A stretch of DNA of 64,000 bases from a virus (IMGVR_UViG_3300042898_004347:1-64000); one strand, 5' to 3'; counted from the stretch's first letter, positions 7,649 through 53,447 are shown. The notes: a model not told the origin generated them from the letters alone. A program made the numbers and translations.

Positions 7649-7656
7649 TATTTATA
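7649..7656 (-). promoter_or_regulatory. T4-type late promoter TATAAATA
   Basis: Exact TATAAATA 46 nt upstream of the 7603 start. Confidence 0.8.
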
Positions 7657-46178: not shown

Positions 46179-46616
46179 TTACTTTAGGTTTTTGTAGACC
46201 TTGGCCCAATAGGCTTCAAGGTTCTTTTGCTTGGTGTCGGACATTGGAGAAGCCACTCGGCGCCAAGAACCACCGCCACCGTTCCAGATGAAGCCGAGTT
46301 CTTTCTCAGTGGCTTTACGGTTCGTGGTTTTTTCAATGTGTTTCGAGTAAAAATTCAGAACCCCTTTGGCGACTTCACGAGATGTGATTTCGTCAAACAT
46401 GTCCGCATGCCTGTAATTCTTACCCGTGATGCGGTTGAAGTCCTGGACCATCACCGCGTGAATCTGAAGGATTCCAAGCGCCTTACCGCGGTCGCCGATG
46501 GCAGCAGCGTTACCGTTGCTTTCGGTACGAACCAGCGCTTCCACCAAGCGGTCAATATTTTGACCCGAAACGGTAGCGGTAAGGGCAAGAATTGCGACGA
46601 TATGTTTGACTTTCAT
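46179..46616 (-). CDS. Secreted lysozyme-like / lytic transglycosylase protein
   Basis: Signal peptide; ALVRTES.G...AIGD.G.A.G.LQI; WNGG; start at ATG 46616. Confidence 0.75.
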   Translation of the reverse strand: MKVKHIVAILALTATVSGQNIDRLVEALVRTESNGNAAAIGDRGKALGILQIHAVMVQDFNRITGKNYRHADMFDEITSREVAKGVLNFYSKHIEKTTNRKATEKELGFIWNGGGGSWRRVASPMSDTKQKNLEAYWAKVYKNLK

Positions 46617-46625
46617 TATGGTACA

Positions 46626-46680
46626 ATCATACAACACCCAGCGCGAAAGTAAATCACAAAGAATTACCTAAGTTGTTGAT
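46626..46680 (-). promoter_or_regulatory. Early promoter ATTTAC-17-TATGAT with conserved upstream box
   Basis: Repeated at 46970, 58498, 60022. Confidence 0.8.
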
Positions 46681-47033: not shown

Positions 47034-49073
47034 TCACTTTGAAGTAGCTCTAAAAACTCCATCCCAGGATGGTCCAGGATCCGCTTTTTCTAGGTCAGCA
47101 ATGCGTTCCAGCATCATGTCGTAGTAATCATTGAGGAAATCCATGTGAGCTTTTAAATCAACTCCCAATTCTTTTGCTTTTTTCCAATTGCGCTCCCGAT
47201 AGTAAGTCATGAAACTGTCATGGGATTTGCTGTAGACGCGTGTGCCCTTTTCAAATACCGTGTAAATCTTCACACCTTCTTTCTTACCCTTTACCGCGAT
47301 GCAATCTAGTTCTAGCGTGGGATACACGTCCTTCACATATTCTCGCGTGATGGGACCAATTACAAATTTGACGCCGTAGGGCTTCGACTGACCTTCCAAG
47401 CGAGAGGCAAGATTCACCGAATCTCCGAGGCAGGTATAATCGAACCGTTGAGTCGAGCCCATATTACCCACAACAACGGTACCAGTATTCACGCCGAGAC
47501 CCATTCCGAATGCAGGAATACCTTCCTTCGTCACCTCATCGTTGAATGCTTTCAGACTTCCTAGCATTGTGAGACCCGTTTCAACCGCATGAAGAGCATG
47601 GTCCTTGTCGTCGAGTGGTGCGTTCCAGAAAGCCATCTGTGCATCACCAATGTACTTGTCCAGCGTTCCCTGACTATCCAGAATGGCCTGTGTCATTGCC
47701 GTCATATACCGATTCATAATCTTTGTGAGACCCTGAACGTCCTTGCCATAGTGTTCCGAGATTGCGGTGAAGCCACGAACATCTGTAAACATGATTGATA
47801 GCTCTCGAGACTCGCCTCCCAACTGTAAGAGGTCGGGATTCTTTTGCAGTTTCTCAACCATGGCTGGAGATAGGTACGTTCCGAACTGTTTCTTGATCTG
47901 CTGCTTGAGTTTAAACTCCATGACGAACCGCATGAAGAGAGAACCAGTCCATACAAGGGATGCGGTACCCACAACCCAGGTATAGTCGGCAAGGAGTCCT
48001 TTATCGAATAAATGAAAGCCGTAATACACTGGAAGGCATACGGCAATAAGATAGATGCCAAGATTTAAGGCGTAGCCCAAAAAGGAGATTGCTCCGATTA
48101 GAATAAGTGCTGCACCCACACCAATTGCAATCTCGTAAAGATCGAACTCTGCTGGGCGTTCAAGTCGGTTACCATCGAGCAACATCTGAAGTGTTTGGAG
48201 ACTGAGTTCGTGTCCGTACGCCGTACCCAATGGAGTCGCAACGGTATTTGCAAGCCCCTCGGCCGTAAGAGCGATCACTACAATCTTGTCCTTCACGTGC
48301 CATTCATCATCGGTGTATGGAACTGATTTAAAGGTATATTTAAAGTTGATCCAGACGCGACCATTGCCATCAGTCTTAATTGGCGGCGTACCAGGGACGC
48401 GAATGGCAGACACTCCCGATTCTGTTACCTTAACCTGAAAGCTGGGTTGGTTACCAAAGACACGGAGGATTTCCAGTGGCATTGTGGGATACTTTTCTTT
48501 TTCAATCTGAATCATGAGCGGTAATCTACGCACCACGCCATCAAGCTCTGGAGCCGTCAATAACATACCCACGCCCGTGGACGCCTCACCAATCTCTTTG
48601 AGTGGTCCGATTGCAGCTGGGTAATCAAATAGCCAGTCATCCGTCGTGCCGCCGATTGTTGCAACGCCTCTTGGAATTGGAACGCCTTTACCCTTTAATG
48701 ACGCCGATTGACCCGTAATTACAGGAGCCTGACTCAGCATCTCAATAAATTCCTTATCTCCGCCAAGACGGTCGGGTTCCGCGAAAATAATAGGTAGCAC
48801 AACACCGGTGGCGCCTGACTCCATGGCTTTTCTGATTGCGCCTGCCAGTTCGGTACGCTTCCATGGCCACTGTCCGTTCTTTTCCAGTGCCTTTTCATCA
48901 ATTTCCACGATCACAATGTTATCCGATACCACCTTGTCCTGCTTTCTCTGATAGTAATCCAGACCTTTGAGACGCATTACCTCGATTGGATACGGGTTTG
49001 CAATGCGGAGACCCACGGCAACTGTGAGAAGCATAAGACCAACAAGAAGGATTCTGAATGTGTGTTTGTTCAT
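47034..49073 (-). CDS. CHASE2-domain membrane adenylate cyclase (class III)
   Basis: N-terminal TM, IVIVEIDEKAL...GQWPW.R and DGVVRR (CHASE2), three TMs, FTDVRGFT, DKYIGDA, YTCLGDSVNLASRLEG. Confidence 0.95.
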   Translation of the reverse strand: MNKHTFRILLVGLMLLTVAVGLRIANPYPIEVMRLKGLDYYQRKQDKVVSDNIVIVEIDEKALEKNGQWPWKRTELAGAIRKAMESGATGVVLPIIFAEPDRLGGDKEFIEMLSQAPVITGQSASLKGKGVPIPRGVATIGGTTDDWLFDYPAAIGPLKEIGEASTGVGMLLTAPELDGVVRRLPLMIQIEKEKYPTMPLEILRVFGNQPSFQVKVTESGVSAIRVPGTPPIKTDGNGRVWINFKYTFKSVPYTDDEWHVKDKIVVIALTAEGLANTVATPLGTAYGHELSLQTLQMLLDGNRLERPAEFDLYEIAIGVGAALILIGAISFLGYALNLGIYLIAVCLPVYYGFHLFDKGLLADYTWVVGTASLVWTGSLFMRFVMEFKLKQQIKKQFGTYLSPAMVEKLQKNPDLLQLGGESRELSIMFTDVRGFTAISEHYGKDVQGLTKIMNRYMTAMTQAILDSQGTLDKYIGDAQMAFWNAPLDDKDHALHAVETGLTMLGSLKAFNDEVTKEGIPAFGMGLGVNTGTVVVGNMGSTQRFDYTCLGDSVNLASRLEGQSKPYGVKFVIGPITREYVKDVYPTLELDCIAVKGKKEGVKIYTVFEKGTRVYSKSHDSFMTYYRERNWKKAKELGVDLKAHMDFLNDYYDMMLERIADLEKADPGPSWDGVFRATSK

Positions 49074-50224
49074 TTCTGAATGATGTTTACTTTAAGTTTG
49101 TCTCCGAAGTTGAGTGGATATACCGTAGTTCCATTCGAGTCGGTAATCTTAAACGTTGCGCTTGTGTCTGCTTTTAATTTATAGTGAATGACTCCTTTGG
49201 ATGTGGAAAGATTCATTATTGCGTTTGTGCCGTCCGTAGTAAATCCATTATTGACCGTTGACGTCACAATGAGCGATGGTAATGGACTTGCCGCTGTTGC
49301 AACCGTGACCTCTGGATTTTTAAAAATGACTTCTGCTACGGCCTGAAGTAGCTCGGGCTGCATTGCCTTTACATCGATGATGGCTGTTTTAGTTTCTTCC
49401 ACAGGCTTTTCTTCAGCCTTAACCTGAGTAGACGTACTAGGTTCAACCTGAGCAACCGCAGTAGCGGAATCACTCTTGCCGCTTGATTTTTTGTTTGGTT
49501 TATCATCGGCCGATTCGGATGTGTTTGCCTGTGTCTGCTTTTTGGCTTCCTTTACCGCACTTGTGACGGGTTTCGGAGTCTCAACAAGAATCAGGTTATT
49601 GATTTTGCTTTCATCTTGAAAGTTAAGTATGACGGGATTTGTAGGAGCGGACTGCATTGACGCAATAAAGGTCGCCTGATATGCCTGAGTCATAAGGACA
49701 CTTCCTGCTACATTTGACACCTCGATAACTCCCACGGTTCCAGGAGTTGCGCTATATTCGGGCCGCGAAGGAAGTAGAATGATGAGACTCTTACCATCCT
49801 CGGAGACGGTCATTGAAAAATCCGTACCACGAACAGAAATCTTTGCGGTAGGAGTTTGAACCTTAATGTTCTCTCTACTATTCTTTGCAATCATACCCGA
49901 TGCATAACGAACGGTACCGAATGCCGTCTTCATTGAGACCTTACCCTTACCGCTCGCAGGATCATACACGAATTCATCAATCTTGAGCTTCGAGAACTCA
50001 GTGATCTGCATTACTGTATGATCCTCGAATTCAATGGATACCCGAGCCTTTAAGGTCTCGATGGTATCATCCTGCTCTATCTCCGTGCCAACCTTACCTT
50101 CTAACTTATCCTTGCCACGAACAATCTGAGTGGGACCAGTAACCTCGGTCAGTTTCCCGACCGAGGCACTGGCTTCAGATATAAAAATAACCGCAAACAA
50201 AAACAGTGCTGCGGCTATGCGCAT
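49070..50224 (-). CDS. Secreted/periplasmic FecR-domain protein
   Basis: Signal peptide; D.IET, F.D.T, TPTAKISVRGTDF; low-complexity linker plus C-terminal beta domain. Confidence 0.88.
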   Translation of the reverse strand: MRIAAALFLFAVIFISEASASVGKLTEVTGPTQIVRGKDKLEGKVGTEIEQDDTIETLKARVSIEFEDHTVMQITEFSKLKIDEFVYDPASGKGKVSMKTAFGTVRYASGMIAKNSRENIKVQTPTAKISVRGTDFSMTVSEDGKSLIILLPSRPEYSATPGTVGVIEVSNVAGSVLMTQAYQATFIASMQSAPTNPVILNFQDESKINNLILVETPKPVTSAVKEAKKQTQANTSESADDKPNKKSSGKSDSATAVAQVEPSTSTQVKAEEKPVEETKTAIIDVKAMQPELLQAVAEVIFKNPEVTVATAASPLPSLIVTSTVNNGFTTDGTNAIMNLSTSKGVIHYKLKADTSATFKITDSNGTTVYPLNFGDKLKVNIIQK

Positions 50225-50227
50225 ACA

Positions 50228-51028
50228 TTAGGGAGTCGGAGGCGAAATCGTCGCTGTTGGATTTGCGGCGCCGTAGTTCGAGGATCCCGTAGTCATAATA
50301 GGAGCAGCAGCCGTTGTGGTCTGGATAATCTGAACGGTATTATTACTACCAGTTAAATTATAGACGAGCTTCTGCTGTTCTATTCCAGCTTGATAGACGG
50401 TGAGGTTATTCGTGCTACCCAGGATGGTAACATCTTGATAATGTCCGCCTTTCTGAGTTGATGCGCCAACGCTTCCGATCTGAGTTGATTTTACGATATT
50501 TGAACTACCGGTAATGTTATAATCAATCCAGTTGAATGAAGCATTTTCGAATCCGAATTTCATCGTGTTCGAGCTACCAACAACATCAATGGTGACATCG
50601 CTGTCCGCAATGGTCGCCTTTGACGTATCGACCTCGGAGGTATGATCCACGGTCACATCTTTATTCACGGTTATTGAATTCGTGCTTCCGACCAACGACA
50701 CGTTGAATGTGTTGTTGGCACCGTTCATGAAGTATTTCTGAGTGTTCGTATTACCCGTGGCAACAGCGAGCAAGCTCAGATTGTTGGCTCCGATAATAGA
50801 GAAGTCAGTACTGTTGCTATTTCCCATCTGACGCGTTTCAAAGGTAATGTTATCGCCAGTGATGTCGCTTGCAACTCCAGAGGAGCCGATTCGATTCAGG
50901 CTGCCGACCTGAATTAGGGTTGTGGAACCCGCGGTTGTGATTTGATTCACATATATCTGATTCTGGGCAAAGGCTGGAGTTAATAGCATAAGCCCAAGAA
51001 TGAATCCTAGTTTTAGTTTTGTTTTCAT
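50228..51028 (-). CDS. Curlin-like secreted beta-solenoid protein
   Basis: Signal peptide; repeated (I/V/Q)-x-G-x-x-N units at about 11-residue spacing; directly after csgG. Confidence 0.65.
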   Translation of the reverse strand: MKTKLKLGFILGLMLLTPAFAQNQIYVNQITTAGSTTLIQVGSLNRIGSSGVASDITGDNITFETRQMGNSNSTDFSIIGANNLSLLAVATGNTNTQKYFMNGANNTFNVSLVGSTNSITVNKDVTVDHTSEVDTSKATIADSDVTIDVVGSSNTMKFGFENASFNWIDYNITGSSNIVKSTQIGSVGASTQKGGHYQDVTILGSTNNLTVYQAGIEQQKLVYNLTGSNNTVQIIQTTTAAAPIMTTGSSNYGAANPTATISPPTP

Positions 51029-51840
51029 TTCTTTTTAGCGTTATTGTTGGTTGTGTCTTTGAATTGCCAAAGACCTGCTGTTTGCCCCTGTTTTACGATT
51101 TCGATGACTGCCTGATCAATAGCGCTCCGGACGGCAATGCCATTCGGTTCATTTGCAGTGAGACCAAGTTCTGACTCAATCGGGGTTGTTCCGTGATCAT
51201 AAAATTTAAATAGATTGCCCGAGAGGGCAATACTCGTAATTGTTTTAGTAACAGCTACGCTCAGAAGGACCTCTCCTGTTTGAACGCTTACAAGCCTCAG
51301 TGACACTGTTACTACGTCCTTACGATATTGAGTGCTGCTGGAGATGCCAAGAACACTGGCGCCCGCGCCTCCCGTAAGGATATTGCTATCATATCCGATA
51401 ATACCGCCCTGCGCAATAACGCCGGCAAATAACATCGGGGTGAGTTTCTCGGCGTCTTTACCGAGGAAAGTTTCTCTTGTCTGTGAAATAAGTTGGCGTT
51501 CCTTAATAATGTCGTCAAGGCTCGCACGTTCGAGTACCTGAAACCACGTGCCATTACTTGCAAGACGTAATGCATCAATGAGCCAGCTCTCTGCGCCCTG
51601 CGTGACGGCAGAAGAGAATGTGGCATACGCGTCTGCGGTCTTTCTCTGTCCCGTTTTATCCGCAAAACCATAGACTGCAATTGTCATCCGAGGACCATCA
51701 ATTGGAGGAAGTTCTAATAGCTGTTTCGCCATTGGAGACATTTGTACCTTCGGGGTCTCGAGGATGCCGGGCTTGGATGGAACCGAAGCACAACCCCCGA
51801 ACAACAAAGATAGTAAGAGTATGGAGAGGAATTTAACCAT
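51025..51840 (-). CDS. csgG: Curli secretion channel lipoprotein CsgG
   Basis: Lipobox FGGC; AVYGFADKTGQRK, FSSAVTQGA, WFQVLER, KERQLI, GGIIGYD, VTVSLRLVSVQTGEVL. Confidence 0.93.
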   Translation of the reverse strand: MVKFLSILLLSLLFGGCASVPSKPGILETPKVQMSPMAKQLLELPPIDGPRMTIAVYGFADKTGQRKTADAYATFSSAVTQGAESWLIDALRLASNGTWFQVLERASLDDIIKERQLISQTRETFLGKDAEKLTPMLFAGVIAQGGIIGYDSNILTGGAGASVLGISSSTQYRKDVVTVSLRLVSVQTGEVLLSVAVTKTITSIALSGNLFKFYDHGTTPIESELGLTANEPNGIAVRSAIDQAVIEIVKQGQTAGLWQFKDTTNNNAKKK

Positions 51841-51843
51841 TGA

Positions 51844-52302
51844 TCAGCCACCGCCTGGATTCAATGTTCCTACGGGAACTTGAATAGTTGTAGTATTGCC
51901 GGTTACAGGATCAACAATGTAGAGAGTCACCATATCGCCATTCTTTTGCCATGTGACGGTAGATCCGCCTTGAAGATTAATGATGCCAAAGTTTGCTCCG
52001 TTGGAGTTAAAGATGGCATCCGTGACCTGAGAAGCTAGTTGAGAATAGATTCGAGCCTGCAGGTTATTAATGAATGCATTAAGCGGGGTATTCTGTGCCG
52101 TAACTTTTGCAGTTTCAGCATCTGCTTTTGCCTGATCTTTGAATGATTGCTTTCGGGTGCGTGCAAGGTTCTCAATGGTGATTTCATGGGAAGAAAACCC
52201 AATGCCGTTAAACATTGGAGACTTAAAACCATGCACCATATCCGATGCAAAGACGACCTCAGGGAGGAGGCAGAGAAGTAGAAGTAGGAGCAGGTTTTTC
52301 AT
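51844..52302 (-). CDS. csgF: Curli assembly protein CsgF-like
   Basis: Signal peptide then SDMVHGFKSPMFNG (cf. CsgF F.NP.FGG); C-terminal DPVTGNTTTIQVP; upstream of csgG; start 52302. Confidence 0.8.
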   Translation of the reverse strand: MKNLLLLLLLCLLPEVVFASDMVHGFKSPMFNGIGFSSHEITIENLARTRKQSFKDQAKADAETAKVTAQNTPLNAFINNLQARIYSQLASQVTDAIFNSNGANFGIINLQGGSTVTWQKNGDMVTLYIVDPVTGNTTTIQVPVGTLNPGGG

Positions 52303-52573
52303 TGGTGATTGATGCGGGTGGCACAATATGTGGACCCCCGCGTTGCATTTCGATAGCTGTATTAATTTTTTGTTCTAGTCTAATTAAATCATTATCAAGC
52401 ATACGAATTCGGTCAATCAACGCAATCATAGTTTTCTTTGCTTCCGACAGCTCAGAATTAATGTTCTCCGTCACAAATTTCCAAACAAAGTAAATAAAAT
52501 ATCCCATACCAGCGGCAGCCATCATTGGCATACCGTACTGGTTGATCATCTGTTTTAGTTCAATAGGATCCAT
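52259..52573 (-). CDS. Small single-TM coiled-coil protein
   Basis: QYGMP...TM...LIDRIRMLDNDLIRL; paralogue of next gene. Confidence 0.7.
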   Translation of the reverse strand: MDPIELKQMINQYGMPMMAAAGMGYFIYFVWKFVTENINSELSEAKKTMIALIDRIRMLDNDLIRLEQKINTAIEMQRGGPHIVPPASITNEKPAPTSTSLPPP

Positions 52574-52575
52574 AA

Positions 52576-52860
52576 TTAATCCCTTCTTGCATCCGTTTTA
52601 CCATCACTGCGTGCTAGACGTTCAAGGTCGACACGTAATCCGAACCGTGATGAGATGAGTGCATCAATCCGAACAAGATCATTGTTCATTGTACGCACAC
52701 GGTTGTTCAACATTCCAGCAAGACCATTCAAAGATTTTACATCGTCAACAACTCCTGCAAGAATATACTTGAGGAGAATGACAATGAAGACTCCACCAGC
52801 AATAACTGCGGCAACTGAGAATCCAAGGTCTGCAAATGATCTAAGTGTTTCGAAACTCAT
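52576..52860 (-). CDS. Small single-TM coiled-coil protein
   Basis: DLGFS...TM...LNNRVRTMNNDLVRI. Confidence 0.7.
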   Translation of the reverse strand: MSFETLRSFADLGFSVAAVIAGGVFIVILLKYILAGVVDDVKSLNGLAGMLNNRVRTMNNDLVRIDALISSRFGLRVDLERLARSDGKTDARRD

Positions 52861-53123
52861 TAGCCGTTTACAATGCTATCGATCTGAGCTTCGAATTCCT
52901 CAACCTTTTTAATTCGATTCGGCCATTTAATGTATTCCTTCTCAGGATTCTTTTTGAGATTCTGAAGGAGTGGACGAATTGCCTGATATAAACGGTTTAG
53001 TTTATCTTCATGGTGAGCCGCAGCCCTCTCGGCTACGTCTACCTGTTTTGTAACGTCAAGTTCGTCTTCGTCAACGACAGTAAAACCGAAATCGAAGATT
53101 GGTGTAGAATTATTTGTGGCCAT
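52860..53123 (-). CDS. Conserved phage hypothetical protein
   Basis: FDFGFT.VDEDEL...PLL.NLKKNPEKEYI.WPNR; start ATG 53123. Confidence 0.7.
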   Translation of the reverse strand: MATNNSTPIFDFGFTVVDEDELDVTKQVDVAERAAAHHEDKLNRLYQAIRPLLQNLKKNPEKEYIKWPNRIKKVEEFEAQIDSIVNG

Positions 53124-53277
53124 ATTCAAAAGCAAGAATAATGATAGATGCGATAGTGGATCCCAGAAATATACCGGTTACTAAGCACCAGAACATATTA
53201 CAGTTGGTCCATATACGACCTTGCAATGAAGTAATCGCATACTTCTCAGCTAGACATGTTGATTCCGACTGTTTCAT
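53110..53277 (-). CDS. Small membrane protein (55 aa, below ORF-track cutoff)
   Basis: MKQSESTCLAEKYAITSLQGRIWTNCNMFWCLVTGIFLGSTIASIIILAFEYGHK; first ORF after the late promoter. Confidence 0.5.
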   Translation of the reverse strand: MKQSESTCLAEKYAITSLQGRIWTNCNMFWCLVTGIFLGSTIASIIILAFEYGHK

Positions 53278-53333
53278 AGGATGTAAATAAAAAATGCCGC
53301 CTCATCATAAGATAAAGCAGCATTCAGTATAGC

Positions 53334-53341
53334 TATTTATA
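53334..53341 (-). promoter_or_regulatory. T4-type late promoter heading the curli/cyclase operon
   Basis: Exact TATAAATA in intergenic DNA. Confidence 0.75.
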
Positions 53342-53417
53342 TAAAACTAGATATGGTAATCCTAGGAGTAACTGTCTATCCCTGACCCAAATAGTCTTTG
53401 TTGGTCTGCAGAGATAG

Positions 53418-53447
53418 ATTATACCGCTCCGCAGCCTAAAAGTACAT
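53418..53447 (-). promoter_or_regulatory. Sigma70-type promoter ATGTAC-18-TATAAT upstream of the curli/cyclase operon
   Basis: Consensus -10 and variant of the phage early -35. Confidence 0.55.

Follow-up and report, generated by a model that had tools for sequence, protein, structure and literature searches.

Why would a T4-like phage encode, in one run of genes, the curli secretion channel of the bacterial outer membrane and a receptor-type adenylate cyclase of the inner membrane? This question was raised by positions 47034 to 53447 of IMGVR_UViG_3300042898_004347:1-64000, a viral stretch of 64,000 nucleotides (referred to as the window), where homologues of CsgG and CsgF, a curlin-type protein, a secreted FecR protein, and a CHASE2 cyclase are encoded together with four small proteins. 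In this study, we examined these genes and their relatives in viruses and bacteria. The findings point to a unit of aquatic T4-like phages and some podophages that consists of a viral type VIII secretion system (T8SS), FecR, and adenylate cyclase, and in which FecR would tie the curli apparatus to a late output of cyclic AMP (cAMP). We put the probability of this explanation, late transcription as a single unit included, at roughly 0.45.

The module itself is already known. Wittmers et al. (2022; PMC9599517) described the same pelagiphage cluster in the order HK-CsgF-CsgG-CsgA/B-FecR-(CsgA/B)-AC, where HK and AC stand for histidine kinase and adenylate cyclase. They reported the cluster from podoviruses and myoviruses, detected it in metatranscriptomes and at each of the 65 GOV2.0 stations, estimated it at approximately 0.1% of assembled viral proteins, and pointed out that bacterial curli operons contain neither FecR nor AC. 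The connection of csgFG with FecR and a cyclase, drawn in the initial annotation of the window, is therefore not new: that paper preceded it, distribution and metatranscriptome data included. Wittmers et al. read FecR as an iron regulator and the small transmembrane (TM) proteins as histidine kinases, and mentioned neither CHASE2 nor membrane topology. Zaragoza-Solas et al. (2020; PMC7029224) and Buchholz et al. (2022; PMC9004378) also dealt with phage csgFG; the terms cyclase, FecR, and CHASE2 occur in neither paper, and no later experimental work on the module was found in a literature search. What is added here is the co-occurrence counts, the fusion origin, new labels for FecR and the 'HK', the late promoter, and a neighbouring gene for a cyclic nucleotide monophosphate (cNMP)-binding protein.

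Gene organization of the module

The window lies within a 140-kb record of a T4-like myophage with an estimated completeness of 84%, and baseplate wedge, tail fibre, gp32, and gp59 genes on the record confirm the T4-type context. Nine open reading frames (ORFs) run on the minus strand from 53277 down to 47034, each abutting or overlapping the next. They are listed below in the direction of transcription.

53110..53277, minus strand: 55-amino acid (aa) protein with one C-terminal hydrophobic segment (ORF call)
52860..53123, minus strand: orf87, an acidic helical protein of 87 aa with no TM segment (ORF, start moved)
52576..52860, minus strand: phrog_18771 paralogue A, with an N-terminal TM segment, a conserved helix, and a conserved tail ...DGK.DARRD (phrog_18771, 8e-24)
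52259..52573, minus strand: phrog_18771 paralogue B, with an N-terminal TM segment, a conserved helix, and a Pro/Thr-rich tail (phrog_18771, 2e-30)
51844..52302, minus strand: csgF, a secreted CsgF homologue (Pfam CsgF, PF10614, 2e-16; phrog_35372, 9e-33)
51025..51840, minus strand: csgG, an outer-membrane lipoprotein channel (Pfam CsgG, PF03783, 1e-49)
50228..51028, minus strand: curlin-type (CsgA/B-like) secreted beta-solenoid repeat protein (signal peptide, family motif, and structural model)
49070..50224, minus strand: secreted FecR-domain protein (Pfam FecR, PF04773, 9e-10, aa 53-146; phrog_37870, 6e-64)
47034..49073, minus strand: CHASE2 receptor-type class III adenylate cyclase (Pfam CHASE2, 4e-40, and Guanylate_cyc, 1e-18; phrog_35576, 5e-213)

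When ATG starts were preferred, the junctions consisted of overlaps of 14, 1, 44, 4, and 4 nt and gaps of 2, 3, and 3 nt. Two starts were reassigned to the most likely positions: that of orf87 was moved from TTG 53135 to ATG 53123, and that of csgF to ATG 52302, which is followed by a clear signal peptide. The nine co-oriented, tightly packed genes described in the initial annotation were all recovered on the minus strand at the same coordinates, and the overlaps of 1-44 nt and gaps of 2-3 nt bear out the operon structure that it proposed. The G+C content of the module was approximately 42-47%, and viral PHROG families already exist for five of the nine genes. Signal peptides, the lipobox, and TM segments of the operon proteins were assigned by inspection of the translations.

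Curli channel and its predicted substrate

CsgF scored 60.7 bits against a Pfam cut-off of 25.8 and has a signal peptide, and CsgG scored 168.7 bits against a cut-off of 20.8. CsgG also aligned over its full length (aa 5-263) with Escherichia coli CsgG (3x2r, 1e-43), and its lipobox cysteine was located at MVKFLSILLLSLLFGG-C17 (LLFGG-C17). The mature N-terminus of CsgF reads ...GFKSPMFNG, which by inspection resembles the motif with which E. coli CsgF inserts into CsgG; a phmmer search of the Protein Data Bank (PDB) with this protein returned no CsgF match. The residues of the constriction loop of E. coli CsgG are Tyr51, Asn55, and Phe56. At these positions of the alignment with 3x2r, Phe is kept, Asn is replaced by Thr, and a gap falls around Tyr. 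The phage CsgG and CsgF were shown to carry features of the curli outer-membrane channel, in agreement with the CsgF-like protein and the CsgG lipoprotein claimed initially.

The curlin-type gene is present in a single copy on the record. Its product had no Pfam match at E<=10, Curlin_rpt (PF07012) included; among 15 aligned viral homologues, six matched Curlin_rpt, with a best value of 9e-8. A periodic Q-x-G-x-x-N motif with invariant Q, G, and N columns runs through the family alignment. The AlphaFold2 model of the protein (predicted local distance difference test score, 77) had as its top structural match CsgA of Pontibacter korlensis (8c50_A; Z 18.9, root-mean-square deviation 8.7, 193 aligned residues, 21% identity). 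This match was found only by an exhaustive VIA search; with Foldseek, the model had no PDB match at E<=1e-3. Hence, of the curlin-like secreted protein named in the initial annotation, the signal peptide, the family motif, and the CsgA fold stood, and a Curlin_rpt match of its own did not. We predict that this Sec-exported, curlin-type beta-solenoid is the natural substrate of the CsgG/CsgF channel. The initial annotation had recognized no csgE, and CsgE (PF10627) was not found in the whole 140-kb record either; CsgD was likewise not found in the record.

FecR protein and CHASE2 cyclase

The FecR protein scored 39.3 bits against a cut-off of 24 and consists of a signal peptide, the FecR domain, a low-complexity linker, and a C-terminal domain of approximately 95 aa, for which the matches in the ESM Atlas were viral FecR clusters only. 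Pfam searches and inspection revealed neither an N-terminal anti-sigma domain nor a TM segment, and an extracytoplasmic function sigma factor (Sigma70_r2) was not found in the 140-kb record. An anti-sigma iron regulator of the FecI/FecR/FecA type was considered and rejected in view of the cleavable signal peptide, the solitary FecR domain, and the lack of Sigma70_r2. We favour reading this protein as the periplasmic partner that commonly accompanies a CHASE2 receptor, probably not as an iron-signalling anti-sigma factor.

The cyclase, the sole one on the record, matched phrog_35576 end to end. CHASE2 (PF05226) was assigned to aa 17-317 with 138.4 bits against a cut-off of 26.3, and Guanylate_cyc to aa 423-605. 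By inspection, the protein begins with TM1 (aa 7-24), followed by the periplasmic CHASE2 domain, three TM segments at approximately aa 314-383, and the catalytic domain; with one TM segment before CHASE2 and three after it, the catalytic domain is therefore placed in the cytoplasm. The catalytic domain aligned with CyaB of Pseudomonas aeruginosa (3r5g, 1e-30), and all the expected residues were present: the metal-binding Asp431 and Asp477, the substrate pair Lys473/Asp545, the transition-state residues Asn554 and Arg558, and Lys595. The enzyme looks like an active, ATP-specific class III adenylate cyclase. The secreted FecR protein and the CHASE2-3TM-class III cyclase of the initial annotation were thus both upheld by the Pfam matches, catalytic residues, and envelope locations. 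A complex prediction for FecR (aa 21-232) with CHASE2 (aa 25-320), both supplied as alignments, gave a score of 0.01 (mark, 0.32) and was used neither way.

In distant viral CHASE2 cyclases with approximately 38% identity (L025:13186-15210, L040:15786-17846, L037:11977-13929, and L057:3620-5626; L numbers denote fetched loci), Asp545 is replaced by Gly or Ser and Asn554 by Ser, which suggests an altered specificity or activity in this subgroup.

Conservation of the module in viruses

A scan of IMG/VR showed that the cyclase is encoded on at least 594 viral stretches. Pelagibacter phage HTVC008M (KC465899) and Methylophilales phage Melnitz (MZ577097) have the module in the same order, with proteins 43-47% identical to those of the window. 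Co-occurrence was counted in fetched viral loci with enough flanking DNA. The initial annotation held that its proposal would lapse if cyclase and FecR genes did not accompany csgFG in related genomes; CsgF, FecR, and the cyclase were present in 52/52 CsgG-anchored loci, and CsgG, CsgF, and FecR in 39/39 cyclase-anchored loci. The FecR gene always sits between the pore/curlin genes and the cyclase. One locus (L162) has its cyclase in the opposite orientation to the remaining module genes, which it still adjoins, and the phrog_18771 pair is relocated in some modules (see below). The linkage of the module therefore survives rearrangement, and the gene order check suggested in the initial annotation came out in favour of conservation, both in HTVC008M and Melnitz and in the adjacency kept after rearrangement. 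Four cyclase loci had no FecR or CsgG nearby (L115, L116, L146, and L160), and their upstream flanks were short or contained insertions. An ORF similar to GIY-YIG homing endonucleases (L116:1559-2065) overlaps the start of the cyclase in L116, where FecR was not found in the 2 kb upstream.

Two contigs with the whole module are filed in metagenome-assembled genomes (MAGs) of Bacteroidetes and Luteolibacter (L161, RGCF01000015.1, and L162, CAYWLC010000001.1). A bacterial origin of the whole module was considered on the basis of these contigs and rejected, as L162 is a T4-like phage contig. It also encodes a T4-type sliding clamp, clamp loader, ligase, and endolysin, and because of these T4-type replication genes we regard it as phage DNA binned with a bacterium, or as a hint of the host. 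Both 'bacterial' contigs appear to be phage DNA.

Cellular counterparts of the two halves

The nearest cellular cyclases were CHASE2 cyclases of Bradyrhizobium, Afipia, and Methylobacterium, with 33-38% identity. Among Bradyrhizobiaceae-type cyclase loci with enough upstream DNA, a FecR-domain gene was found upstream on the same strand in 38 of 57, with the FecR match 3.6-10 kb from the cyclase. For example, a Bradyrhizobium locus (L204:2151-9821) contains an ORF of 2556 aa, the only Pfam match of which is an N-terminal FecR domain and which abuts the CHASE2 cyclase gene. CsgG and CsgF were found in none of 78 bacterial CHASE2-cyclase loci.

Conversely, CsgG 39-48% identical to the phage protein was found in 8 of the 401 alphaproteobacterial genomes sampled, with adjoining CsgF and curlin-like genes. 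Within approximately 9 kb of these eight csgG loci, neither tblastn nor viral-protein profiles detected FecR, cyclase, or phrog_18771 genes. As curlin-csgF-csgG stands apart from FecR-CHASE2 cyclase in the cells examined, the phage module is therefore considered a fusion of two cellular cassettes, probably made by phages and since co-inherited.

Putative late promoter and neighbouring features

A box of T4 late promoter type precedes the first gene of the module.

53334..53341, minus strand: T4-type late promoter box TATAAATA, 57 nt 5' of the first ATG (putative function assigned from the motif)

The window contains 12 exact TATAAATA boxes, compared with 2.7 expected by chance, and none of 100 shuffles reached 12. 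Ten of them are on the minus strand, at 7649, 9356, 16535, 20318, 27466, 31346, 33448, 37038, 53334, and 54044, and comparison with the ORF list placed most of the ten no more than approximately 70 nt 5' of minus-strand ORF starts. From this motif, the module would be transcribed late as a single unit. The minus-strand sites mostly precede the starts of structural genes and so offer a map of the late regulon of the phage.

A stem-loop of 15 pairs, followed by a T run, was observed at 53292-53325 (minus strand), 3' of the box and 5' of the first ATG; it could be the terminator of the upstream gene or a structure of the 5' leader. Two genes downstream of the cyclase, a protein of 152 aa with an SLT (lytic transglycosylase) domain is encoded at 46179-46637 (minus strand; 9e-6). 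It may be a phage murein hydrolase, which would be relevant to ideas on lysis timing.

Small proteins at the head of the operon

The 55-aa protein gave tblastn matches in near relatives only (L004, L005, L012, L087, and L088), and orf87 was conserved at 74-95% inside the clade of the window; searches of Pfam, PHROG, and PADLOC gave no match for either. The next two proteins, of 94 and 104 aa, are single-pass, and their matches to phrog_18771 confirmed the two paralogous TM proteins of the initial annotation. In 39 of 97 distinct modules, this pair precedes the module on the same strand, and in 24 it follows the cyclase on the opposite strand. Matches of the family in the ESM Atlas were unnamed viral clusters only. 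A search of the PDB with the phrog_18771 profile gave weak coiled-coil matches (Vipp1/PspA, 0.013), which were treated as chance.

The label 'histidine kinase' given to these small TM proteins (PMC9599517) was examined and rejected. The proteins are 75-105 aa long and have no HisKA or HATPase domain, the family alignment has no invariant His, and histidine-kinase families were found neither at E<=1 in 18 phrog_18771 members nor in the two copies of the window. With no hidden Markov model (HMM) support for a kinase, we regard them as small TM proteins, probably not histidine kinases.

cNMP-binding neighbours in related modules

In five distinct related modules, a cNMP_binding protein is encoded divergently and directly adjoins csgF, at the following positions.

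L112:5709-6350, minus strand: cNMP-binding gene by csgF
L117:3867-4484: cNMP-binding gene by csgF
L013:4373-5005: cNMP-binding gene by csgF
L122:513-1157: cNMP-binding gene by csgF
L095:5606-6259: cNMP-binding gene by csgF

The L112 protein (213 aa) contains cNMP_binding at aa 36-121 (5e-21) and a hydrophobic C-terminus. Such a gene was present in 5/13 modules without the phrog_18771 pair versus 0/65 with the pair, counts that are not phylogenetically independent. In L112, the cNMP-binding gene is the first in a series that continues with APS-kinase-like and glycosyltransferase genes.

Interpretation of the module

If the module works as one unit, CsgG/CsgF would export the curlin-type protein, and FecR and CHASE2 would form a periplasm-sensing cAMP generator in which FecR acts as the ligand or adaptor of CHASE2, as in the bacterial pairs. 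FecR would report a curli-linked state of the envelope, such as export load, fibre assembly, or entry through the ungated pore, and this state would set the cAMP output late in infection. FecR is assigned the link from pore or fibre state to the cyclase because its gene lies between the two halves and is inherited together with them. As the target of cAMP, the host CRP regulon would be improbable so late, and a membrane effector would be likelier; the candidates are the cNMP-binding TM protein whose gene neighbours csgF in some relatives and, in the window, possibly the phrog_18771 TM pair. Such an effector could act on lysis timing or superinfection. The outside-in signalling that the initial annotation envisaged is plausible yet unproven: its parts, their envelope locations, their co-occurrence, and the NsrA precedent described below speak for it, and the coupling is the unproven part. 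The direction of information and the inputs that it named (superinfection, contact, and damage) are pure inference.

Several points weigh against this interpretation. Contact between CsgG/CsgF/curlin, FecR, and CHASE2 has been demonstrated nowhere. Close gene spacing is usual in phages, and the late timing is deduced from a sequence motif. The two cassettes are unlinked in cells, and their co-location in a hypervariable island of the phage could be a matter of packaging. No cNMP_binding protein was found in the 140-kb record (84% complete), nor in nine of the ten large relatives searched. Podovirus modules are often without the cyclase and yet keep the T8SS and FecR (PMC9599517); therefore, the pore system does not need the cyclase, and FecR may serve the pore, for example by replacing the missing CsgE, rather than the cyclase. 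Furthermore, SMc02177 of Sinorhizobium meliloti, a FecR-domain protein encoded by a cAMP/Clr-regulated gene, is dispensable for signal perception (PMC5498481).

Some of these points would also fit with two independent cargo cassettes, one providing a surface amyloid (for aggregation or 'sibling capture', as a superinfection shield, or for uptake) and the other providing cAMP that reprograms host metabolism via a CRP-type regulator, with no flow of information between them. The cassettes were unlinked in every cellular locus examined, the cyclase is the part that podovirus modules often do without, the record has no phage cAMP receptor, and the module lies in the variable region by gp32 and gp59 (PMC7029224). 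Against this, co-occurrence was complete in the 91 assessable loci, adjacency was kept after inversion of the cyclase or the TM pair with FecR always between the halves, and a late promoter would leave little time for transcriptional reprogramming of the host. We consider independent cassettes unlikely, while giving them appreciable weight. Wittmers et al. (2022) proposed instead that an iron-responsive FecR, the 'histidine kinase', and the cyclase regulate the viral T8SS, as cAMP and CsgD control curli in enterobacteria. The conservation of the three genes beside the T8SS genes, in PMC9599517 and in the viral loci studied here, is consistent with this, as is the cAMP-CRP control of csgD in Gammaproteobacteria cited in that paper. 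The features found here argue against it: FecR is secreted and has a periplasmic domain only, with no anti-sigma domain, TM segment, or Sigma70_r2 partner on the record; the 'HK' proteins are small, have one TM segment, and match no kinase family; neither CsgD nor a cNMP-binding regulator is encoded on the record; and the operon stands behind a T4 late promoter. In T4-like phages, promoters of this kind depend on gp55/gp33, not on CRP. Regulation of this kind therefore seems quite improbable to us.

The late promoter would also suit a lysis device, in which CsgG/CsgF would serve as a gated secretin- or pinholin-like pore that times lysis and curlin secretion would be irrelevant (Buchholz et al., 2022). 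The SLT-domain gene downstream of the cyclase, the endolysin near the module in L162, and the fact that clumping of infected cells was not reported in PMC9004378 are in line with such a device. It leaves FecR and the cyclase unexplained, and all along the module keeps a curlin-type substrate whose amyloid motif is invariant, which argues that the channel still exports this protein. Moreover, as an outer-membrane lipoprotein, CsgG cannot depolarise the inner membrane. We hold out little prospect for a lysis device.

The unit in which FecR couples the curli apparatus to cAMP thus remains our preferred explanation. A bolder form of it is an end-of-infection switch, in which FecR/CHASE2 would sense a periplasmic or envelope event tied to the ungated curli apparatus, for instance superinfecting phage, envelope damage, or export load, and cAMP would directly address phage-encoded membrane effectors that control when lysis or exclusion occurs. 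In some lineages, this role would fall to the cNMP-binding TM protein, and in the window to the phrog_18771 pair. Such a switch is a long shot; if true, it would be a phage-side counterpart of the cyclase-effector logic of Pycsar and a new form of lysis inhibition. If the cyclase truly reads the envelope via FecR, the module would represent a trans-envelope sensor installed by a phage, with consequences for when the most abundant marine bacteria lyse, for their superinfection, and for their aggregation. Few accessory gene sets are as widespread among ocean and lake myophages as this module, and it supplies hosts such as SAR11 and OM43 with an envelope machine that they otherwise do not have.

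Comparison with known systems

With Pycsar, the likeness is that the phage cyclase matched PycC models (1e-25) and that the cNMP-binding protein of related modules, which has a hydrophobic C-terminus, matched the cNMP part of PycTIR models. The phage cyclase differs in its purine-type Lys/Asp pair and its CHASE2 receptor, and the window contains no effector gene and encodes the cyclase on phage DNA, not in a defence island. Membership of Pycsar was rejected, as there is no cNMP-binding gene on the record and the Lys/Asp pair is of the purine type, not the pyrimidine type; the HMM matches are considered generic domain homology.

The alphaproteobacterial csg loci without csgC, csgD, and csgE (Dueholm et al., 2012; PMC3521004) share with the phage module a CsgG of 39-48% identity, CsgF, curlin-repeat genes, and the lack of CsgE. 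They differ in that the eight loci have no FecR, CHASE2 cyclase, or phrog_18771 gene within approximately 9 kb.

The nearest experimental analogy for the signalling part comes from S. meliloti: activation of the CHASE2 cyclases CyaK, CyaD1, and CyaD2 by an extracellular protein signal requires the outer-membrane protein NsrA there and leads to cAMP and Clr (PMC7529298, PMC13001267), and where deletion of CHASE2 renders CyaD1 constitutive (PMC5498481). The NsrA pathway and the phage module have in common an outer-membrane protein combined with inner-membrane CHASE2 class III cyclases, and the host is an alphaproteobacterium, as are the bacteria in which the phage cyclase has its nearest cellular relatives. 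In the NsrA pathway, the outer-membrane component is a beta-barrel receptor, not CsgG/CsgF, there is no amyloid substrate, and the output regulator is of a CRP type that is absent from the phage. We use this pathway as a working analogy only and do not claim homology of the outer-membrane parts.

The T8SS region of the pelagiphages HTVC008M and Melnitz is closest to the module. The lineage of the window is divergent, with a higher G+C content and two additional small ORFs that open the operon, and a second curlin gene lies between FecR and the cyclase in HTVC008M and Melnitz but not in the window. The gene set, its order, and its site near gp32 in a T4-like genome are shared, and these two cultured phages make the function of an abundant module testable.

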